Shown here: positions 88 through 62,605 of the stretch, in pieces
Position numbering within the stretch: position 1 is the first letter of the stretch
Layout of the letters: each line of letters begins with the position of its first letter
NCBI GenBank assembly: GCA_964531715.1
Contig: CAZHEE010000002.1
Span: 97,676-161,675, forward strand
Direction: 5' to 3'
DNA: 64,000 bases
DNA from: an uncultured Micavibrio sp.
GTDB lineage: Bacteria; Pseudomonadota; Alphaproteobacteria; Micavibrionales; UBA1664
Translations under genes and position numbers: made by a program
Notes under the pieces: model-generated
The model's database searches: none
The model's input: the letters and a program-made list of their open reading frames with translations, nothing else
What the model was told of the DNA's origin: nothing

Positions 88-99
88 TCAAAATTAGCT

Positions 100-141
100 G
101 GATTACAGGTATTTTCCTTTCAGTCAAAACCTGTAATGACG
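100..141. repeat. Solo hairpin of palindromic family A (right-end type, GGATT...AATGACG)
   Basis: GGATTACAGGT-loop-ACCTGTAATGACG with a 9-bp stem ATTACAGGT/ACCTGTAAT. Lies 20 nt downstream of the stop of the minus-strand gene at 161. Confidence 0.75.
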
Positions 142-9542: not shown

Positions 9543-10052
9543 TTATTGCATGACAGGGTAAGACCGCCGCCCGATTACATAATCCTTTTTTACAGGGTAA
9601 TTTTGCGTGGTCGGGATAGGCGCGCTGTAAGATTCCTCGGTCAATATCTCTGAAATCACGGCAGGGACATTATTCGCATCATTGGCAATAAGAGCTATCG
9701 GTTGAGATTCTGCGCGGAAGCCATTAAAACGATTGCCGTTTTCAAGATTTGTAAAATCAATCACAACCTTATCCGGATAATTCCAATAGCCAAAGCCGAA
9801 GGACGGCTCTATCACAACTGTGCGCCTGCGATCCGTAAAATTATCATCACAATCAATTTTAAGGTCGGCAGGGTCACGCTCAATGAAGGCCGTTCCGGGC
9901 GCATCCAGCGCATAACGGTTTGTATCGGTTGATAAGCGGCAATAGGCGGCATCGGTGCCAAGCAAGGCCACTTCAATATCCTGCCCCGTATTGATAGATG
10001 GCGCGGCGCACGCGGTCACAAATAAACAAAAAGATAATAAAACATATTTCAT
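9543..10052 (-). CDS. Putative lipoprotein
   Basis: 169 aa. Signal peptide with lipobox-like FVTAC. Its stop abuts the Mur-ligase start codon (9542/9543). Confidence 0.5.
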   Translation of the reverse strand: MKYVLLSFCLFVTACAAPSINTGQDIEVALLGTDAAYCRLSTDTNRYALDAPGTAFIERDPADLKIDCDDNFTDRRRTVVIEPSFGFGYWNYPDKVVIDFTNLENGNRFNGFRAESQPIALIANDANNVPAVISEILTEESYSAPIPTTQNYPVKKDYVIGRRSYPVMQ

Positions 10053-10240: not shown

Positions 10241-12838
10241 TTATGCCGCTTGGCTGTTCACCTTTTCGCCTTTGAAGGATAAATCGTTGCCGTCGTAAGC
10301 GACATGCACAATCATATTATCCGTAATCTCCCCTTTAAGCAGAGCCTCGGCCAGCGGATTTTGAAGCTCGCTTTGAATGACCCGTTTTAAAGGTCGCGCA
10401 CCATAAGCAGGGTCGTATCCTTTATCTGCAAGAAACGCCAAAGCCTTCTCATCCAGCTCAATTTCGATTTGGCGATCTTCAAGGAGCTTCCTCAAACGCT
10501 TGAGCTGTATCTCGACAATTTGCGCCATCATTGCGCGTTCCAACCTACGGAACAACAATATATCATCCAGACGATTGAGAAATTCCGGTCTGAAATAGCC
10601 GCGAACTGCCTCCATCACGCCCTCGCGGACATCCTCAACATCTTCGCCCTCTTTCTGATTGACCAGCAAATCCGCACCGATATTCGATGTCATAATCAAA
10701 AGCGTATTGGTGAAATCAACCGTCCGGCCTTGCCCATCGGTCAGCCGCCCGTCATCCAAAACCTGAAGCAGGACATTAAATACATCCAAATGCGCTTTTT
10801 CAATTTCATCGAACAATATGACTTGATAAGGCCTGCGCCGCACCGCCTCGGTTAACACGCCGCCTTCCTCATACCCGACATAGCCGGGCGGTGCACCAAT
10901 CAAGCGCGATACGGAATGCTTCTCCATAAACTCACTCATATCAATGCGCACCATCGCGGTATCATCATCGAATAAAAATTCCGCTAAAGCCTTTGTAAGC
11001 TCGGTTTTCCCGACACCGGTCGGCCCCAAAAACATGAAGGAGCCAATCGGACGATTCGGGTCTTGCAAGCCTGCGCGAGCGCGGCGGATCGCATTTGATA
11101 CGGACATAATTGCCTGATCCTGCCCCACCACGCGTTTTGCCAAGGCCGCCTCGAGGTTGAGCAGTTTTTCTTTTTCACCCTCAAGCATTTTGGACACGGG
11201 AATCCCCGTCCATTTTGCAATGACTTCGGCAATATCCTCATCTGTCACTTCCTCATTAATCATCGCGGATGTTGACAAATGGCTCGCCTCCTCGACCTTG
11301 GCTTCCAGTTCAGGAATTTTACCGTAAGATAACTCCCCGGCCTTTGCCCAATCATTATCACGCTCGGCACGTTCAAGCTCGGCACGGGCTTTATCCAGCT
11401 CCTCTGCCCATTGCTGCGCCTTGTTCAGCTTTTCTTTCTCCGCCTGCCATTGCGAAGTGAGGTCTGCCGATTCTGATTCTAGGGCGCTCAAATCTTCTTC
11501 CAGCTTTTTCAAGCGGTCTTTTGACCCTTGATCTGTTTCTTTTTTCAGGGCTTCACGTTCAATTTTGAGCTGAATAATCTGCCGATCAAGCGCGTCCAAA
11601 GCTTCTGGCTTAGAGTCAACCTGCATCCGCAAGCGTGCCGAGGCTTCATCAATTAAATCAATCGCCTTGTCGGGTAAAAAACGATCCGTGATGTAGCGAT
11701 TGGAGAATGTCGCCGCGGAGACAATCGCCGCATCCGTCACGCGCACACCATGGTGAAGCTCGTATTTCTCTTTCAAGCCACGCAGGATTGAGATCGTATC
11801 TTCAACCGTCGGTTCGCTGATAAAGACAGGTTGAAAACGCCGTGCCAGTGCCGCATCTTTTTCAATATATTTGCGATATTCATCCAAAGTCGTTGCACCG
11901 ACCATGTGTAGTTCACCCCGTGCCAATGCAGGCTTCAACATGTTTCCTGCATCCATCGCGCCATCGGTTTTCCCTGCGCCGACAAGCGTATGAAGCTCAT
12001 CCAGAAACAGAACGACTTCGCCCGCGGCTTCTTTAACCTCATCAAGCACACCTTTCAAGCGTTCCTCGAATTCCCCGCGGAACTTCGCCCCTGCAATCAG
12101 TGAGCCCAAATCAAGAGCCATTAATCGCTTGTTTTTCAGGCTTTCAGGCACATCACCATTGATAATACGAAGCGCGAGCCCTTCCGCAATTGCGGTTTTT
12201 CCCACACCCGGGTCGCCAATGAGTACAGGGTTATTTTTGGTTCGGCGCGATAGCACCTGAATAGTGCGGCGAATTTCCTCATCACGCCCGATGACTGGGT
12301 CGAGCTTCCCACTTCGCGCCACTTCTGTTAAGTCACGCGCATATTTCTTAAGCGCATCAAATTGATCCTCGGCACTTGCGGAATCAGCCGTACGACCTTT
12401 ACGGCGGTTATTGATGGCTTGGTTCAAATGCTGATCATTCACGCCGCTATCTTTTAACGCGGCGGAGACTTCCGTTTTCTTCGCCATAATCATGGCCTGC
12501 AACAAACGTTCGGTTGTGATAAAGCTGTCGCCTGCTTTTTCCGACAATACGCGTGCCTCGTCTAAAATCTTGGCAAGGTCATTGGACATACGCAATCCTT
12601 GTGCGCCTGCGCCTGTCACCTGAGGGAGTTTCGCGAGATTTTTATCAAGGATGGCTCGCAATTTTTGTAAATCACCACCAGCGGCGGTTACGAGGGAGTC
12701 CGTTACATTCTGATCATCATCTAGCATCACGCGGAGCAAATGTTCAGGCTCTAGCGATTGGTTGTCTTTCCTGAGCGCGAGTGTTTGCGCCGCCTGAACA
12801 AAGCTTCTCAGCTTTTCCGTCATTTTTTCGAAGTCCAT
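10241..12838 (-). CDS. clpB: ATP-dependent chaperone ClpB
   Basis: Two AAA+ modules ([15 protein letters not shown] and [15 protein letters not shown]) with a long coiled-coil middle domain. Start set at [10 protein letters not shown] (12838). Confidence 0.95.
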
Positions 12839-12869: not shown

Positions 12870-12894
12870 CGTCATTCCGGCGCAGGCCGGAATC
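12870..12894. repeat. Solo hairpin, family D (CGTCATTCCGGC-GCA-GCCGGAATC)
   Basis: 9-bp perfect stem ATTCCGGC(N)GCCGGAAT with the same CGTCATT...AATC frame as family A/B arms. Confidence 0.7.
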
Positions 12895-13060
12895 TATTTA
12901 TTGTTTTATCACTATAATATTAATCTTCTTCCGAAGCGCATCAAGTTTATAAAAGAGCCTCTCATGAGCAATCTCCATAAATTATAATATAGGAATAAAG
13001 TCCTTAATGTCAAATGATTTTTCATCGTAGAGTTATAGAGAAGGGGCGTTGTTTTTAAAA

Positions 13061-13260: not shown

Positions 13261-13327
13261 TTTATTCTTAGAATGAATTACGCCTATTTTCTTAATCATT
13301 AAAAGATGCAATAACAAACGAAGAAAA

Positions 13328-13878: not shown

Positions 13879-15111
13879 TTATCTGTGGATTGCGGTAAAT
13901 ACGCGGTCATGCCCCCCAAGGTCACGGATAACGCGATAGTCGGTAAAGCCAGCACCCCTCGCAATTTCTGCGATTCGTCCACACTGCCCTGCCCCATGCT
14001 CAAGGGCAAGCAAACCACCTTTTTTTAAGTAGTTTCGAATCTGTGGAAGAATCAAGCGATAAGGTCCCAGTCCATCTGCACCACCATCCAAAGCACTATG
14101 CGGATCATAGTTTTTCACTTCCGCTTGAAGCGTTGGGATATCACAACTTTCAATATAAGGCGGGTTTGAGATGATAATATCAAACTGCCCCTCAACCGAG
14201 TCGAACCAATCAGATAGAATAAAAGTAACGCGACTTGAAAGATTTTGTTTTTCGGCATTGAGCCGCGCCACTGTCAGAGCCTCTTTAGAAATATCAGTCG
14301 CGATACCGATTGCATTTGGTAGCTCATTCAAAAGTGTGAGAATCAAACATCCTGAGCCTGTACCTAAATCTAGTATTTTTAAAATTTCGTCATTACACGT
14401 TTTATCTTGAGATAAATACGTGTAATCCATTTTAGTATTTTCCGATGGATTGCACGTATTTTGCTGACGCAAAAAAGTGCAATGACGTAAGACTTCCTCA
14501 ATTAAAGTTTCACTATCAGGGCGCGGGTCAAGGACATGCTCATTCACGTGAAAATCCAGCCCGTAAAACTCTTTCACGCCGATAATTTTTGAGAGAGGCT
14601 TACCTTTTAACCGTTCAGCAAGCATTGATTCAAGTTTTTGATGTTGTTCGGCTGTAAGATTTAAAGAATCATTCGAAATTAGATCTGCATCGCGCATGCC
14701 CGTGATATGCTTAAGCATCATCCGCGCCTCTAATGATGACCCGAGTTGTTTTGAGATATATCTTAAAAAAAACTCGTCATTACACGTTTTACCTTTAGGT
14801 AAATACGTGTAATCCACCTCACCTGTAATCTCGCCATATAAATCAAGCCACTCAGGATTATCTTCTTGGATAAGGTTTATTTTCCATTCTCTGGAATATC
14901 GCCTTAGTCGCTTTTCCCACTGAACAGCATCTTCCCAATTACCGCATTGCCGGTACCAGACAAGTTTTTTTACATTATATTTTGTTGTAAATTTGCTCCC
15001 TATATTATTTTTATGTTGCCAAGTCCGACCAATTAAATTGGATGAAATACCCTTATAAATTGTGCCATTTTTTTGCTTTGCTAGCATGTAGACGTAAAAA
15101 TCTTTTTTCAT
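13879..15111 (-). CDS. prmC: Release-factor glutamine N5-methyltransferase PrmC, read as one ORF with an N-terminal GIY-YIG domain and carrying an in-frame palindromic insert
   Basis: 410-aa ORF. Residues 1-98 align with the stand-alone GIY-YIG ORF at 16315..16611. The rest has PrmC hallmarks ILDLGTGSGCL (motif I) and IISNPPYI (motif IV) and sits directly downstream of prfA. The true prmC initiation codon is uncertain; an in-frame GTG lies inside the hairpin at about 14818. Confidence 0.75.
   Translation of the reverse strand: MKKDFYVYMLAKQKNGTIYKGISSNLIGRTWQHKNNIGSKFTTKYNVKKLVWYRQCGNWEDAVQWEKRLRRYSREWKINLIQEDNPEWLDLYGEITGEVDYTYLPKGKTCNDEFFLRYISKQLGSSLEARMMLKHITGMRDADLISNDSLNLTAEQHQKLESMLAERLKGKPLSKIIGVKEFYGLDFHVNEHVLDPRPDSETLIEEVLRHCTFLRQQNTCNPSENTKMDYTYLSQDKTCNDEILKILDLGTGSGCLILTLLNELPNAIGIATDISKEALTVARLNAEKQNLSSRVTFILSDWFDSVEGQFDIIISNPPYIESCDIPTLQAEVKNYDPHSALDGGADGLGPYRLILPQIRNYLKKGGLLALEHGAGQCGRIAEIARGAGFTDYRVIRDLGGHDRVFTAIHR
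14388..14487. mobile_element. ORF-less 100-bp palindromic mini-element (family A left hairpin + 18-nt spacer + right hairpin) inside prmC
   Basis: Left hairpin CGTCATTACACGT..ACGTGTAATCC (14388..14428) and right hairpin GGATTGCACGT..GTGCAATGACG (14447..14487). Translated in frame as HCTFLRQQNTCNPSENTKMDYTYLSQDKTCNDE just before PrmC motif I. Confidence 0.8.
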
Positions 15112-15167
15112 TGATTATCTCTGAGATGGATTACACGTATTTATCTTCGATAAAACGTGTAATGACG
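14775..15167 (-). mobile_element. GIY-YIG element copy 1: left hairpin, GIY-YIG ORF, right hairpin
   Basis: Left hairpin at 14775..14815 and right hairpin at 15128..15167 are 40-bp inverted repeats of each other. The GIY-YIG coding part (about 14816..15111) begins MKKDFYVYMLAKQKNGTIYKG. The element fills the prfA-prmC junction. Confidence 0.75.
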
Positions 15168-15172
15168 ATACT

Positions 15173-16234
15173 CTATTCAAACTCTGCCAGGCGGCTGGCA
15201 TTATCTTCTTGTATTAATGCATCTGTAATCTCGCCCAAACCACTCCCCGCCAAGACGCCCGAAAGATTATGCACGGTCAGCCCAATACGATGATCCGTCA
15301 CGCGCCCTTGCGGAAAATTATAGGTGCGAATACGTTGCGAGCGATCACCGCTCCCTACTTGCAATTTACGGTCATCCGCGCGTTCATTCGCCGCCTTTTC
15401 CATTTCGGCCTCCAAAATACGGGAGCGCAGAACACTCATCGCCTTTTCCTTGTTTTTATGTTGGGAGCGGCCATCTTGCGATTCCGCAACTACGCCTGTC
15501 GGAATATGTGTCACACGCACAGCGGAATCAGTGGTGTTGACATGCTGCCCCCCAGCGCCTTGTGACCTGAAAGTATCAATGCGCAAATCCTCGGTTTTGA
15601 TTTCGACATCAACCTCCTCGGCCTCGGGGAGAACGGCGACAGTCGCGGCAGAGGTATGGATACGCCCGCCGCTTTCGGTTTCGGGTACACGCTGAACACG
15701 GTGACCGCCGCTTTCATATTTCATCTTTGAAAACACATTATTGCCGGAGATTGTGCAGACAATTTCCTTATACCCACCCAAGTCATTTTCGGATGTTGAA
15801 TCAACCTCTACGCGCCAGCCATTTGCAGCGGCAAAGCCCTTATACATGGTGAACAGGTCGGAGGCGAAGAGCGCCGCCTCATCCCCGCCCGTGCCTGCGC
15901 GGATTTCCAAAATCGCATTGCGGCTATCGGTTTTTTCCTTTGGAATAAGCGCGATTTTCACGGCATGTTCAAGCGCGGGCAGTTGAGGCTCCAGCGTTTT
16001 GAGATCCTCTTTCGCCATCGCCGCCATTTCAGGGTCGGATAACATCTCTTTAAGGTCGGCAATCTCGCTTTTCGTGTTTTGATAGGCAAGTATCGCCTGA
16101 ACAACAGGCTCTAAATCACTATATTCTTTTGATATTTTGACGAATTGGTCGCCTTCCAACTCCCCCGAAGACATCAGGGAGGTCAGCTCCGCATGACGGT
16201 CAGTAATGGCTTGTAATCGCGCTTCAATGGACAT
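15173..16234 (-). CDS. prfA: Peptide chain release factor 1
   Basis: 353 aa. GGQ motif ([17 protein letters not shown]) and the RF1 tripeptide region (PxT-type IHTSAATV). Confidence 0.95.
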
Positions 16235-16269: not shown

Positions 16270-16676
16270 CGTCATTGCACGTTTGCTAAAAGCTATACGT
16301 GCAATCCATAAACGTCAAAGCCCGCATATATTATCATATAAATCTAACCATTCGGGGCTATTTTCCTCAATCAAATTAATCTTCCACTGACGAGAATATC
16401 GCCGCAAGCACTTTTCCCAATTTACAGCCTCTTCCCAAGTGCCGCAGTGATGGTACCAAACCAGTTTCTTTATATCATATCGAGATGTGAATTTACTACC
16501 GATATTATTTTTATGTTGCCAAGTGCGACCAATTAAATTTGATGACATGCCTTTATAGATTGTACCATGCTTTTGTTTGGCTAGCATGTAAACATAAAAA
16601 TCTTTTTCCATTTTATCATCTTACTTTTGCGATTATGGATTGCACGTATTTTTCTTCGAAAAAACGTGCAATGACG
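16270..16676 (-). mobile_element. GIY-YIG element copy 2: left hairpin, GIY-YIG ORF, right hairpin (407 bp)
   Basis: Left hairpin CGTCATTGCACGT..ACGTGCAATCC at 16270..16307, ORF at 16315..16611, right hairpin GGATTGCACGT..ACGTGCAATGACG at 16637..16676. Lies between the prfA start and the ispG stop. Confidence 0.8.
16315..16611 (-). CDS. GIY-YIG (URI-domain) nuclease, catalytic core only
   Basis: 98 aa: FYVYML...GTIYKG...NLIGRTWQH...WEK pattern. 77 of 98 residues are identical to the N-terminus of the 13879..15111 ORF by manual alignment. Confidence 0.8.
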   Translation of the reverse strand: MEKDFYVYMLAKQKHGTIYKGMSSNLIGRTWQHKNNIGSKFTSRYDIKKLVWYHHCGTWEEAVNWEKCLRRYSRQWKINLIEENSPEWLDLYDNICGL

Positions 16677-31637: not shown

Positions 31638-31728
31638 CGTCATTGCGAGAAGCGGAGCGACGAAGCAATCCATACAGTCTCTAACATCTTATGGATTGCC
31701 GCGGTCGCGTTGCTCCCTCGCAATGACA
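31638..31728. repeat. Palindromic element family B, copy 1 (91 bp) between convergent mgtE and pcm
   Basis: CGTCATTGCGAG..GCAATCCATA-(centre)-TATGGATTGC..CTCGCAATGACA. Each arm is itself an ATTGC...GCAAT hairpin. Confidence 0.8.
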
Positions 31729-36516: not shown

Positions 36517-36630
36517 CGTCATTGCGAGGGAGCCCCTGCCTTCGTAGAGGGCAGGCGTTGCGACCGCGGCAATCCATAGAACATTAAAGACTGTATGGAT
36601 TGCTTCGTCGCTCCGCTTCTCGCAAAGACG
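36517..36630. repeat. Palindromic element family B, copy 2 (114 bp, inverted relative to copy 1, with an extra internal hairpin) between convergent cckA and lpdA
   Basis: CGTCATTGCGAGGGAGC[CCCTGCCttcgtagaGGGCAGG]CGTTGCGACCGCGGCAATCCATA...TATGGATTGCTTCGTCGCTCCGCTTCTCGCAAAGACG. Confidence 0.8.
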
Positions 36631-40536: not shown

Positions 40537-41508
40537 ATGCTTAATCCGTTTCAGGCCATGCAAAAGGCAGTGGACATCGTTAATGACAGTGAGCATATCA
40601 AAAATAAAATTGCCGCCTGTTTGTTTCAAACATCACCGTCATCCTCCGACTTGATCGGGGGATCTTCTTCCGAGGGGAATCCTTTGGTCAAGCCAAAGGA
40701 CGACGTTTACATAGCGCGATATAATCATCGCCCTGACAGACTAAAAAACAAGCTCTCACCCGATAAGCGTATAGGTGACAGCAGCCAGTTCCTCCATGCC
40801 GAGGTCGCCTGCATCTTCGCCGCTGACTTTCCGACTGAAGGCGCAAGCCTATGCATCACTGACCCGTTTTGCCCGAATTGCGCGAAAGCCATCAGCGAGG
40901 CGGGGATAGCCCATGTTTATATTGACCATAAAGGTATTGAGAAAGATTTTTTTGTCCGCAGAAGAGATGTGTTTGAGGCCTTGTCACTCAATATTTTGAG
41001 GCAAGAAGGCATTGGTGTTGCCATTCTTAATCGTAAAAAAAGAACATATCAAATAGTGCTTGAACCACAAAAAATTTCTAAAAAAGAAACAGATTTAATT
41101 ATTTTAAAACAATCAGATAATTCAATTTCATTATCTGATTTATTAAAGAAAAATAAAGCGTTTTATCCTGATAAAAATTTCGCGATTGCTTTCATCAAAG
41201 ATAGAGAAGATCAAATTTGCGCTTTTACTATATTTGAAAAATCTTATGATAGCCTTCACGATGTTAATCCATCCGACAAATACAGTGTGATGATTGACCC
41301 CGTCAACCGCCTCCTCTATCACTGCGCGCGCCATGGCTATCAAATTTTGAATCAAGAGATAGCAACAAATATCACCCCCTCGAACCGCGCAATCGTGAAT
41401 GCAATCGGTTATAATATTCACAAGATTATAAGCACTTGGCATGATACAGAGGGCAGTAACCGCAATATTTTAAACGATTTGGATATAATCTCTGTTAAAT
41501 CTTGCTAA
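40537..41508 (+). CDS. Cytidine/deoxycytidylate deaminase-like zinc-binding protein with a C-terminal extension
   Basis: 323 aa. HAEVACI ... DPFCPNCAKAI (H-A-E / PCxxC zinc motif). Residues 34-56 are encoded by a palindromic insert. Confidence 0.6.
   Translation: MLNPFQAMQKAVDIVNDSEHIKNKIAACLFQTSPSSSDLIGGSSSEGNPLVKPKDDVYIARYNHRPDRLKNKLSPDKRIGDSSQFLHAEVACIFAADFPTEGASLCITDPFCPNCAKAISEAGIAHVYIDHKGIEKDFFVRRRDVFEALSLNILRQEGIGVAILNRKKRTYQIVLEPQKISKKETDLIILKQSDNSISLSDLLKKNKAFYPDKNFAIAFIKDREDQICAFTIFEKSYDSLHDVNPSDKYSVMIDPVNRLLYHCARHGYQILNQEIATNITPSNRAIVNAIGYNIHKIISTWHDTEGSNRNILNDLDIISVKSC
40637..40705. repeat. 69-bp (23-codon) palindromic insert, family C-like, in frame in the deaminase-like gene
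   Basis: Left arm CGTCATCCTCCGACTTGATCGGGGGATC. The right arm contains a perfect 8-bp hairpin TCCTTTGG-tcaag-CCAAAGGA followed by CGACG. Encodes PSSSDLIGGSSSEGNPLVKPKDD. Confidence 0.55.
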
Positions 41509-49575: not shown

Positions 49576-49963
49576 GATTACCTTTCTTAAATATTAGAAT
49601 TTCTTTTTTGATGCTAAAAACAATGTGACTGACTATGACAACAGAAAAAATGCGATAAATATACACCCATGCTGGAACATTTTGACCAGATACTTCTAGT
49701 TGCCATGGATTTATTAGAGTATAAGTCAAAATGACGGTCACCAAAGATGCCACTGGATACGTTATTTTAGAAAAGTGTTTATATGTTTTTCCCAATATCC
49801 CAAGCAGTAAGCCTGTTATAAATATAGAAGGATCTAAGATAAAAGCAAAAATGCTGCCCATCATTACAGCTGCCGCATGCTTATCAACAAAAAATATTAC
49901 AAATGAAAATATAACAATTAATGGAAAAAATAGCAAATGAGGTCTCTTAAAATTCTTTAGCAT
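49568..49963 (-). CDS. Hypothetical small polytopic membrane protein (upstream gene of the cassette)
   Basis: 132 aa from the ATG at 49963 (MLKNFKRPHLLFFPLIVIF...), preceded by the RBS TAAGGAG. Several hydrophobic segments. Confidence 0.55.
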   Translation of the reverse strand: MLKNFKRPHLLFFPLIVIFSFVIFFVDKHAAAVMMGSIFAFILDPSIFITGLLLGILGKTYKHFSKITYPVASLVTVILTYTLINPWQLEVSGQNVPAWVYIYRIFSVVIVSHIVFSIKKEILIFKKGNHD

Positions 49964-59037: not shown

Positions 59038-59278
59038 TCCTGCCTCAAACCCTCTTGACCACATTAAAATGCGGCTAGAGAGCCTGAATAATACTGAGTT
59101 TATGGCTTTCGGTCTCGATGGATTAAGCTATATTAAGCCAATTAATGACCCTGATGATTTGGGGTCTTCCTACGCGCTATACAGTGCAAATGGAAGGCAA
59201 ATTGCTGTCGGACATGATGTTAATGTGCTGAAAGCCACCGCGTTACAGCAGGCTCTCATCCCGATGGTTGTTCATTAG
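59021..59278 (+). CDS. DUF1150-like protein
   Basis: 85 aa. Overlaps the hsp20 3' end. GLSYIKPI...YALYSANGRQIAV pattern and the usual position after alphaproteobacterial hsp20. Confidence 0.5.
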   Translation: MGSMNNPASNPLDHIKMRLESLNNTEFMAFGLDGLSYIKPINDPDDLGSSYALYSANGRQIAVGHDVNVLKATALQQALIPMVVH

Positions 59279-62297: not shown

Positions 62298-62325
62298 TTA
62301 AAACACGAAGGTAATTCTTAGTAGT

Positions 62326-62363
62326 GGATTACAGGTATTTGCTTCGCAAAACCTGCAATGACG
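62326..62363. repeat. Solo hairpin of palindromic family A (right-end type)
   Basis: GGATTACAGGT-loop-ACCTGCAATGACG. Same stem variant as 100..141, with one mismatch. Confidence 0.75.
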
Positions 62364-62383: not shown

Positions 62384-62445
62384 TACCTCTATTTTCCTCT
62401 GTAGTTCAAACCCTAAAGACCCCGCATTAAATGCGGGTTACATTG
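62384..62445. repeat. Dispersed repeat family E, copy 3
   Basis: TACCTCTATTTTCCTCTGTAGTTCAAACCCTAAAGACCCCGCATTAAATGCGGGTTACATT aligns with 13061..13130 and 1..50. Confidence 0.6.
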
Positions 62446-62605
62446 ATTATATCTATTTTGACCTATGTCGTGACAAATTGCTGTTACTCGTGGATAAAAT
62501 ATATGATTTTCCTTTGATTGTGTAGGCAATTTAGCCCTCACACTTTCGAAAGGGGTTCGTTTTTAAATTTATATTAAGCTAATATTGAAATCGCAAGAAG
62601 AAACC

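Follow-up and report, generated by a model that had tools for sequence, protein, structure and literature searches.

The stretch of DNA analysed here (the window, 64 kb in all, with a G+C content of 43.6%) holds exactly eight copies of a hairpin element of 38-44 nt, which we refer to as family A; the inventory was the same by motif scan, by fixed-frame pattern and by covariance model. The window comes from a metagenome contig, and its genes are also present in the JGI metagenome samples 3300040788 and 3300040789. Its gene content, with prfA, prmC, ispG, rodZ and DUF4167, and the nearest named homologues of PrmC point to an uncultured alphaproteobacterium as the probable host. As derived from the eight copies, the consensus is CGTC-ATT[A/G]CA[C/G]GT...AC[G/C]TG[T/C]AAT-CCA, and every copy carries the CGTC tag (8/8), an outer stem of 9 bp that starts with ATT, and a tail of the form CCA[T/C/G] (8/8). 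A pattern that left six stem positions per arm free gave seven matches in the window compared to none in 100 dinucleotide-preserving shuffles. The covariance model scored the eight copies at 55-68 bits, with the next independent match, from another family, at 21 bits, and DNA folding of all eight copies gave z-scores of -2.6 to -5.5. The copies include one gene-less dimer and two inverted pairs that each contain a gene, and they are listed here with the genes concerned.

98..141, minus strand: family A hairpin, solo copy, stem ATTACAGGT/ACCTGTAAT, inner helix degenerate (55.3 bits)
13879..14774, minus strand: prmC part (release-factor glutamine methyltransferase) of a fused ORF, host of the intragenic dimer
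14388..14430, plus strand: family A hairpin, one half of the gene-less dimer in prmC, stem ATTACACGT/ACGTGTAAT (66.8 bits)
14445..14487, minus strand: family A hairpin, other half of the dimer, stem ATTGCACtT/ACGTGCAAT with a T.C mismatch at position 8 (58.8 bits)
14775..14817, plus strand: family A hairpin downstream of ssn1, stem ATTACACGT/ACGTGTAAT (64.9 bits)
14821..15111, minus strand: ssn1, GIY-YIG (Ssn-type) nuclease gene of 97 codons without a stop of its own (PF01541)
15126..15167, minus strand: family A hairpin upstream of ssn1, stem ATTACACGT/ACGTGTAAT (67.7 bits)
16270..16309, plus strand: family A hairpin downstream of ssn2, stem ATTGCACGT/ACGTGCAAT, inner helix shortened (57.5 bits)
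16315..16611, minus strand: ssn2, single-domain GIY-YIG protein of 98 aa (PF01541, E = 6.5e-10, sole domain)
16635..16676, minus strand: family A hairpin upstream of ssn2, stem ATTGCACGT/ACGTGCAAT (66.4 bits)
62324..62363, minus strand: family A hairpin, solo copy, the one named in the sequence-only reading, stem ATTGCAGGT/ACCTGTAAT (59.6 bits)

The two ssn genes and the prmC gene

SsnA of N. meningitidis, an Ssn nuclease, is a GIY-YIG protein of ~94 aa (cd10448) whose cutting was abolished by mutation of Y6, Y17 or E64 (Chenal 2025, Nat Commun, PMC11893778). The Pfam matches, the size, the conserved residues and the association with hairpin motifs in homologues strongly indicate that the proteins encoded by ssn1 and ssn2 belong to this family. 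The conserved residues of the ssn2 product are Y8, Y19, R29, H33 and E66; Y8, Y19 and E66 are conserved in both proteins and were taken as the counterparts of Y6, Y17 and E64, allowing an offset of two residues. The ssn2 product is thus a single-domain protein of the expected size with the catalytic Tyr, Tyr and Glu, while ssn1 encodes the same domain but continues into prmC. No NCBIfam model matched either protein, and a sequence search of the PDB returned no Ssn structure, only distant UPF0213 proteins (1zg2, E = 6e-4). Each gene lies between inverted hairpins in the order CGTC-hairpin-CCAT, about 15-25 nt, ATG...gene, ATGG-hairpin-GACG, so that a hairpin-forming inverted repeat within the 20-50 nt range of the published Ssn-related motifs (SRM) is present on both sides of both genes. 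The hairpin upstream of ssn1 lies 5 nt past the prfA stop codon, the same place that it occupies in a related locus (L206).

The two genes are 1.2 kb apart. Their DNA is 76% identical with a dN of 0.13, and since synonymous sites are saturated (third codon positions are 53% identical), sequence comparison identifies them as old paralogues under purifying selection. Their upstream hairpins differ at 4 of 40 nt, and all four differences fall in two compensated pairs. The gene ssn1 appears to be orthologous to the prfA-linked homologues P0004 and P0102 (77% identity). We also observed that the last codons of ssn1 (GEIT, 14821-14835) and the 3' region of prfA (15221-15235) are identical at 13 nucleotides, GGCGAGATTACAG as read on the minus strand, and that the 9-mer ATTACAGGT, which serves as an arm in the third hairpin variant, occurs within these last codons; the resemblance may be coincidental.

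Because it has no stop codon, ssn1 reads through its downstream hairpin into prmC, giving an ORF of 410 aa (13879-15111, minus strand) in which the hairpin at 14775..14817 is read in frame as VDYTYLPKGKTCNDE, linking the Ssn part to the PrmC part, and the usual start Met of prmC is missing. A fused ssn-prmC frame is also found in two related loci, L209 (10001-11230) and L211 (3447-4583), where the PrmC part is 55-59% identical. The hairpin tail places GTG in frame in the window, ATG in L209 and CTG in L211, and this codon could serve as the start of prmC. For several homologues in which the ORF extends into the hairpin (with the C-terminus ...GLHGQAVQ in P0014 and P0032), back-translation points to the TGA of the AATGACG tag as the apparent stop codon. 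A literature search found no report of GIY-YIG-PrmC fusions.

The prmC part itself harbours the pair of hairpins at 14388-14487. Their CCAT tails face inward and their CGTC tags outward, the same polarity as in the gene-flanking pairs, and since the spacer is only 14 nt, we regard this pair as a gene-less dimer. From CGT to GAC it measures 99 nt, or 33 codons (RHCTFLRQQNTCNPSENTKMDYTYLSQDKTCND), and it lies in frame in the inter-domain linker of PrmC. As a separate observation, the PrmC genes of two other lineages contain in-frame dimers of a different CGTC family, ATTGCGAG... (84 nt at 10634-10717 in L209; 90 nt at 546-635 in L212), and these inserts start at the same alignment column as the window dimer, with the same codons CGT CAT TGC (RHC). 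The closer PrmC homologues P0066, P0071 and P0102 have no insert. The linker could be a site of recurrent or targeted insertion, or the insert could be old and its repeat family could have changed since.

Paired changes in the outer stem and in the inner helix

The sequence-only reading had described three stem variants that differ by paired changes, A:T versus G:C at stem position 4 and C:G versus G:C at position 7, within a constant CGTC / CC frame, and had proposed that the folded structure rather than the primary sequence is under selection. All of the sequences that it quoted were found at the quoted positions, and the variants do differ in this manner. The copy at 62324-62363, which sits between convergent ORFs, has a G.T at position 4 and a G:C at position 7. 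Taken within the window alone, where they amount to about two independent double events, the paired changes are weak evidence; it is the larger sample that makes the covariation solid.

This sample was collected blind to pairing from 2.08 Mb of fetched DNA and the window, requiring exact matches to the GTC tag and the CC tail and allowing each arm up to two substitutions from a reference, with the arms treated independently (three substitutions per arm were too noisy and were replaced by two together with the exact tag and tail). The search yielded 45 elements compared to 2 decoys on the reversed sequence. The outer stem had 9/9 Watson-Crick pairs in 33 of these elements, 8 pairs in 10 and 7 pairs in 2. 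Relative to the reference pair, compensated double changes filled 50 cells and non-Watson-Crick combinations 14, of which 8 were G.T; since the copies are related, the 50 cells stand for roughly 8 independent double events. The outcome that would have spoken against the proposal, namely unpaired changes as frequent as paired ones, was not found. In the de-duplicated alignment, 97.7% of the cells pair, and two-sided changes are seen in 5 of the 9 pairs. Covariation scored 0.401 compared to 0.126 +/- 0.018 in shuffled alignments, none of which reached it (0/500), and sliding the structure by one to three columns reduced the score to 0.09 or less, which supports the view that complementarity is actively kept.

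The frame was likewise constant, with CGTC in all window copies and GTC and CC invariant in the 45-element set. The same set does not bear out the second half of the proposal, that selection acts on structure "rather than" sequence: stem positions 1 and 5 never vary either, and a single variation was seen at each of positions 2 and 8. Given that the tag, the tail and several positions of the stem are fixed, selection is on the structure and on part of the sequence. At internal stem positions, read on the CGTC strand, there were 8 G.T and 2 A.C combinations (p about 0.055, with copies that are non-independent), a suggestive but weak hint for the choice of the CGTC strand. When all CGTC hairpins were taken together, families with 8-bp stems or other tail registers confounded the test of G.T against A.C, which was restricted to internal positions for this reason.

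The statement that the loops vary freely was mistaken, since the middle segment forms an inner helix that stays complementary and has compensatory changes of its own. In the family A fold, the unpaired CGTC is followed by the 9-bp outer helix, which a one-base bulge separates from an inner helix of 3-6 bp; a loop of 3-4 nt closes the inner helix, and the CCA tail completes the element. In an alignment of 16 two-helix copies (the eight of the window and eight metagenome relatives), the consensus structure had 14 pairs, and the two most variable inner pairs changed on both sides in 8 and 7 sequences. Close relatives mostly have a plain loop of 5 nt, CTTGT or TTTAT, which is the form kept in L206 and L209; in L211, one and the same gene has a two-helix copy upstream and a plain copy downstream. 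Other two-helix CGTC families were seen in the metagenome loci L095-L202 (e.g. L112, L146 and L190). Their common plan has 8 bp in the outer stem, one bulged base on the 3' arm and ATTT/AAAT at the start of the inner helix, as in CGTCATTCCGGAATTTGCGAAGCAAATATCCGGAATCCA.

Relatives of the genes and hairpins in other genomes

Homologues of the Ssn proteins are many, and those found by the scan of a genome collection were at most 55% identical. Among 77 usable genome loci with 41-55% identical homologues, a GTC-hairpin-CC element was present within 300 nt in 45 and on both sides in 30. When 38 genome loci were inspected by hand, most were flanked by inverted hairpins in the frame (C)GTCAT...ATCCA, with stems wholly different from those of family A, such as CGTCATGCTGAACTTGTTTCAGCATCCAT in sphingomonads and ACGTCATTCCCGCGAAGGCGGGAATCCAAG in Massilia. 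The core of the Neisseria NTS, ATTCCCGCGAAGGCGGGAAT, flanks homologues in Massilia (L037) and in several contigs of a viral collection. In this viral-contig collection the protein is rare (21 loci), and hairpins were found at 17 of the 21. Around other ssn homologues the usual stem-loop measures 20-25 nt, yet stem-loops of 33-45 nt do occur as a minority.

Close homologues (67-79% identity) were found in six loci, L203-L206, L209 and L211. Their stems, ATTACACGG, ATTGCACGC, ATCACACGG, ATTGCATGG and ATTACACGC, are one or two steps away from family A, and every one of the differences among the first four is compensated. In a metagenome pattern scan, which returned at least 120 loci, relatives of family A were present in four among the matches listed, and other CGTC families or conserved coding matches made up most of the matches listed. 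The ssn gene directly follows prfA in the window, L206, L209 and L211. We also noted that in L203, L204 and L205 a 67-68% identical homologue lies between sufB and sufC of the suf operon (around position 10001), surrounded by several hairpin variants. The conserved positions of ssn, by prfA and in suf, suggest a long vertical residence rather than active hopping, and in the case of ssn1 the place by prfA has apparently been kept since the divergence from L206, L209 and L211.

These loci also bear on the proposal that each GIY-YIG allele is flanked by its own stem variant. It holds in the window, where ssn1 has ATTACACGT and ssn2 has ATTGCACGT on both sides, and in L206. It breaks down in five of the six related loci (L203, L204, L205, L209 and L211), where the two flanks of one gene differ, and the gene-less dimer in prmC mixes an A-type and a G-type copy. 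The stem variants are better seen as co-existing repeat sub-lineages than as private marks of nuclease alleles.

Family A as a probable set of Ssn target hairpins

We consider it probable, at about 0.82, that family A belongs, as a sub-family, to the CGTC-tagged palindromic repeats (REPs), or Ssn-related motifs, that the small GIY-YIG genes encode Ssn-type nucleases, and that the hairpins are the single-stranded DNA (ssDNA) target sites of these nucleases, with pairing kept for the sake of folding. This assignment draws on the comparisons above and on the biochemistry of homologues. SsnA binds the Neisseria sequence CGTCATTCCCGCGMAVGCGGGAATCYRG as ssDNA only, and that strand only; it cuts a few bases upstream of the NTS and has no activity on double-stranded NTS (PMC11893778). 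For binding by SsnA, the C that immediately follows the palindrome matters most, cutting depends on the three bases that precede the palindrome, and changing the palindrome while keeping the hairpin abolished the activity of SsnA (PMC11893778). Related motifs flank ssnA homologues in different phyla, and 42% of the homologues have motifs on both sides; the Wolbachia motif was a substrate of its own Ssn only (PMC11893778). Among the folded forms suggested in the sequence-only reading (cruciform, ssDNA and RNA), ssDNA is accordingly the one with experimental backing, which comes from these homologues.

The likeness to the published Ssn/SRM system (PMC11893778) extends to the single-domain GIY-YIG protein of ~95-100 aa, to the gene placed between inverted hairpins that start with CGTCAT and end with ATCC(A), to the further copies scattered in the genome, and to the conserved tag and first tail base with a variable stem; homologues of the window protein are moreover flanked by the NTS core itself. 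Unlike the published motifs, family A has an AT-rich stem (ATTACACGT) and a bulge with an inner helix, giving a stem-loop of 32-37 nt compared to the usual 20-25. The window also differs in carrying two old paralogues, spaced by 1.2 kb, of which one shares a continuous reading frame with prmC. The published SRM pattern, HGTCWYN(0-2)YYVSBRHN(0-5)WNVSBRGN(0-2)RNCYNB, was built by hand from 29 genomes and is unable to span a stem-loop of 32-37 nt; none of the eight family A copies matches it, and its two matches in the window lie at other sites (12870-12897 and 40637-40667).

CGTC-tagged REPs carry a CGTC (or TGTC) tag, stems of 8-9 bp starting with AT, loops of 4-5 nt and a CCA tail (Di Nocera 2013, PMC3733652). 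They are found mostly in alphaproteobacteria, with frequent inverted dimers and in-frame intragenic copies, and include the Neisseria dRS3 and the Rickettsia RPE-4 and RPE-6 repeats (PMC3733652). Family A agrees with them in the tag, in the 9-bp stem starting with AT, in the CCA tail and in a host that is likely alphaproteobacterial, and also in the repetition within 64 kb, the inverted dimers with short spacers, the presence of several families per genome and the intragenic dimers, which are in frame and code for 20-30 or more residues. It departs from the four described families in that the 4-5 nt loop is replaced by the bulge, the second helix and a loop of 3-4 nt, although some CGTC families with other loop lengths are on record (PMC3733652). 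According to the same study, no dedicated enzyme goes with CGTC REPs; in the window, by contrast, Ssn genes are embedded among the repeats. The REPIN/RAYT system is similar in having a single or low-copy nuclease gene flanked by inverted hairpins, gene-less inverted dimers elsewhere, recognition of an ssDNA hairpin and vertical inheritance. It differs in its GTAG tag and in its enzyme, an HUH/Y1 tyrosine transposase that forms a covalent intermediate as opposed to the hydrolytic GIY-YIG nuclease, and membership of family A in REPIN/RAYT was rejected on account of the CGTC tag and of the flanked gene. The system is hence one already described, of which family A is a new, slightly unusual sub-family, and no new kind of system is revealed.

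By analogy with the homologues, the CGTC strand would fold when ssDNA is exposed by replication, repair or uptake, and Ssn would bind this hairpin along with its tag and the first base of its tail, and would nick a few bases 5' of the tag. If binding needs the stem, a change in one arm would be tolerated only where the other arm follows, and compensated variants would arise as a consequence. The bases that the protein may read directly (GTC, stem positions 1, 2, 5 and 8, and the CC tail) would stay fixed. The gene-less dimers and solo copies may be non-autonomous descendants of the hairpin-gene-hairpin unit, possibly spread or homogenised by repair or recombination after Ssn nicks.

A more far-reaching extension is that the hairpin-ssn-hairpin unit is a present or recent autonomous mobile element with the gene-less dimers as its non-autonomous derivatives, a GIY-YIG counterpart of RAYT and REPINs, which we regard as a rather doubtful possibility. 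Were it true, the CGTC REP superfamily would gain its "missing" enzyme, the two old Ssn paralogues with their own stem variants would be a natural pair of diverging nuclease-hairpin specificities, and the two dimer families in the same PrmC linker column of separate lineages could be read as targeted insertion. The retained position by prfA is more in keeping with a gene that is domesticated and stationary than with an element that is actively mobile.

It is improbable, in our estimation, that complementarity is a by-product of copying, through clones of master copies, fold-back synthesis or mismatch repair within the hairpin, and not of selection. The relatedness of the copies means that few events could explain many compensated cells (about two double events in the window), and all variants seen at least twice are perfectly paired except for one G.T form, which is also compatible with propagation from master copies. 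Such copying would have to account for compensated differences at 5 of 9 outer positions and at variable inner positions, across genomes, and at the apparently orthologous prfA-ssn loci of the window, L206, L209 and L211 as well. Moreover, the hairpins of ssn1 and ssn2 stayed paired while synonymous sites became saturated, which calls for continuous correction or selection; to this extent the explanation by copying overlaps with that of Ssn target hairpins.

We give little credence to the alternative that the hairpins work mainly as RNA, be it as terminators, as mRNA-stabilising 3' hairpins or as translational attenuators, with compensation preserving an RNA stem. Di Nocera et al. argued that many REPs are transcribed, downstream of genes (PMC3733652), the solo copy at 62324-62363 does lie between convergent ORFs, and intermediates compatible with G.U pairing are seen. 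Against these points, the copies lack a T tract after the stem, and for this reason not one of them was scored as an intrinsic terminator. With respect to the direction of transcription, the copies point both ways, in the prmC dimer even within one mRNA, and the asymmetric CGTC and CCA ends are conserved whatever the direction of transcription. SsnA, for its part, did not bind the RNA version of its site (PMC11893778), and Rfam at gathering thresholds returned four tRNAs only and no hairpin family in the window. That the palindrome is the double-stranded operator of a dimeric DNA-binding protein, whose symmetric half-sites would also change in pairs as half-site specificity shifts, is barely credible given that the spacing of the arms ranges from 5 to 18 nt within the family, that a one-base bulge lies on one arm only, that the ends are asymmetric (CGTC versus CCA), that the central segment is complementary with a sequence that is not conserved, and that SsnA is inactive on the double-stranded NTS (PMC11893778).

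As a probable set of Ssn target hairpins, family A offers a clean natural example of the evolution of such sites, with compensated drift, G.T intermediates and a fixed tag, tail and few stem bases, and the pattern of fixed bases indicates which positions are probably read by the nuclease. The published motif pattern misses long, AT-rich versions with two helices, and counts of Ssn motifs are therefore probably too low. The two paralogues with their slightly different flanking stems provide a ready-made test of specificity for the development of Ssn as an ssDNA tool.

Several other repeats were observed in the window. A second CGTC-tagged family (CGTCATTGCGAG...GCAATCCAT) forms inverted dimers at 31638-31728 and 36517-36630, with tails facing inward and 17-nt spacers; no ssn gene adjoins these two dimers in the window. 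The SRM match at 12870-12897 is a canonical short CGTC copy, CGTCATTCCGGCGCAGGCCGGAATCTAT, and the one at 40637-40667 lies inside the ORF 40537-41508. Further elements of the CGTC type, at 12818-12838, 13273-13316, 49705-49736 and 59118-59150, comprise one truncated copy and three decayed candidates. The genome thus holds at least three CGTC repeat families. The solo family A copies at 98-141 and 62324-62363 were considered as the ends of one large element, and this was rejected since their orientation and the order of the neighbouring repeats do not fit. A 50-nt repeat with the palindrome CCCCGCATTAAATGCGGG(G) is present at 8-58 and 62403-62455 in the same orientation, with about 75% identity, and lies about 40 nt from each solo hairpin of the ATTACAGGT type, before one and after the other.
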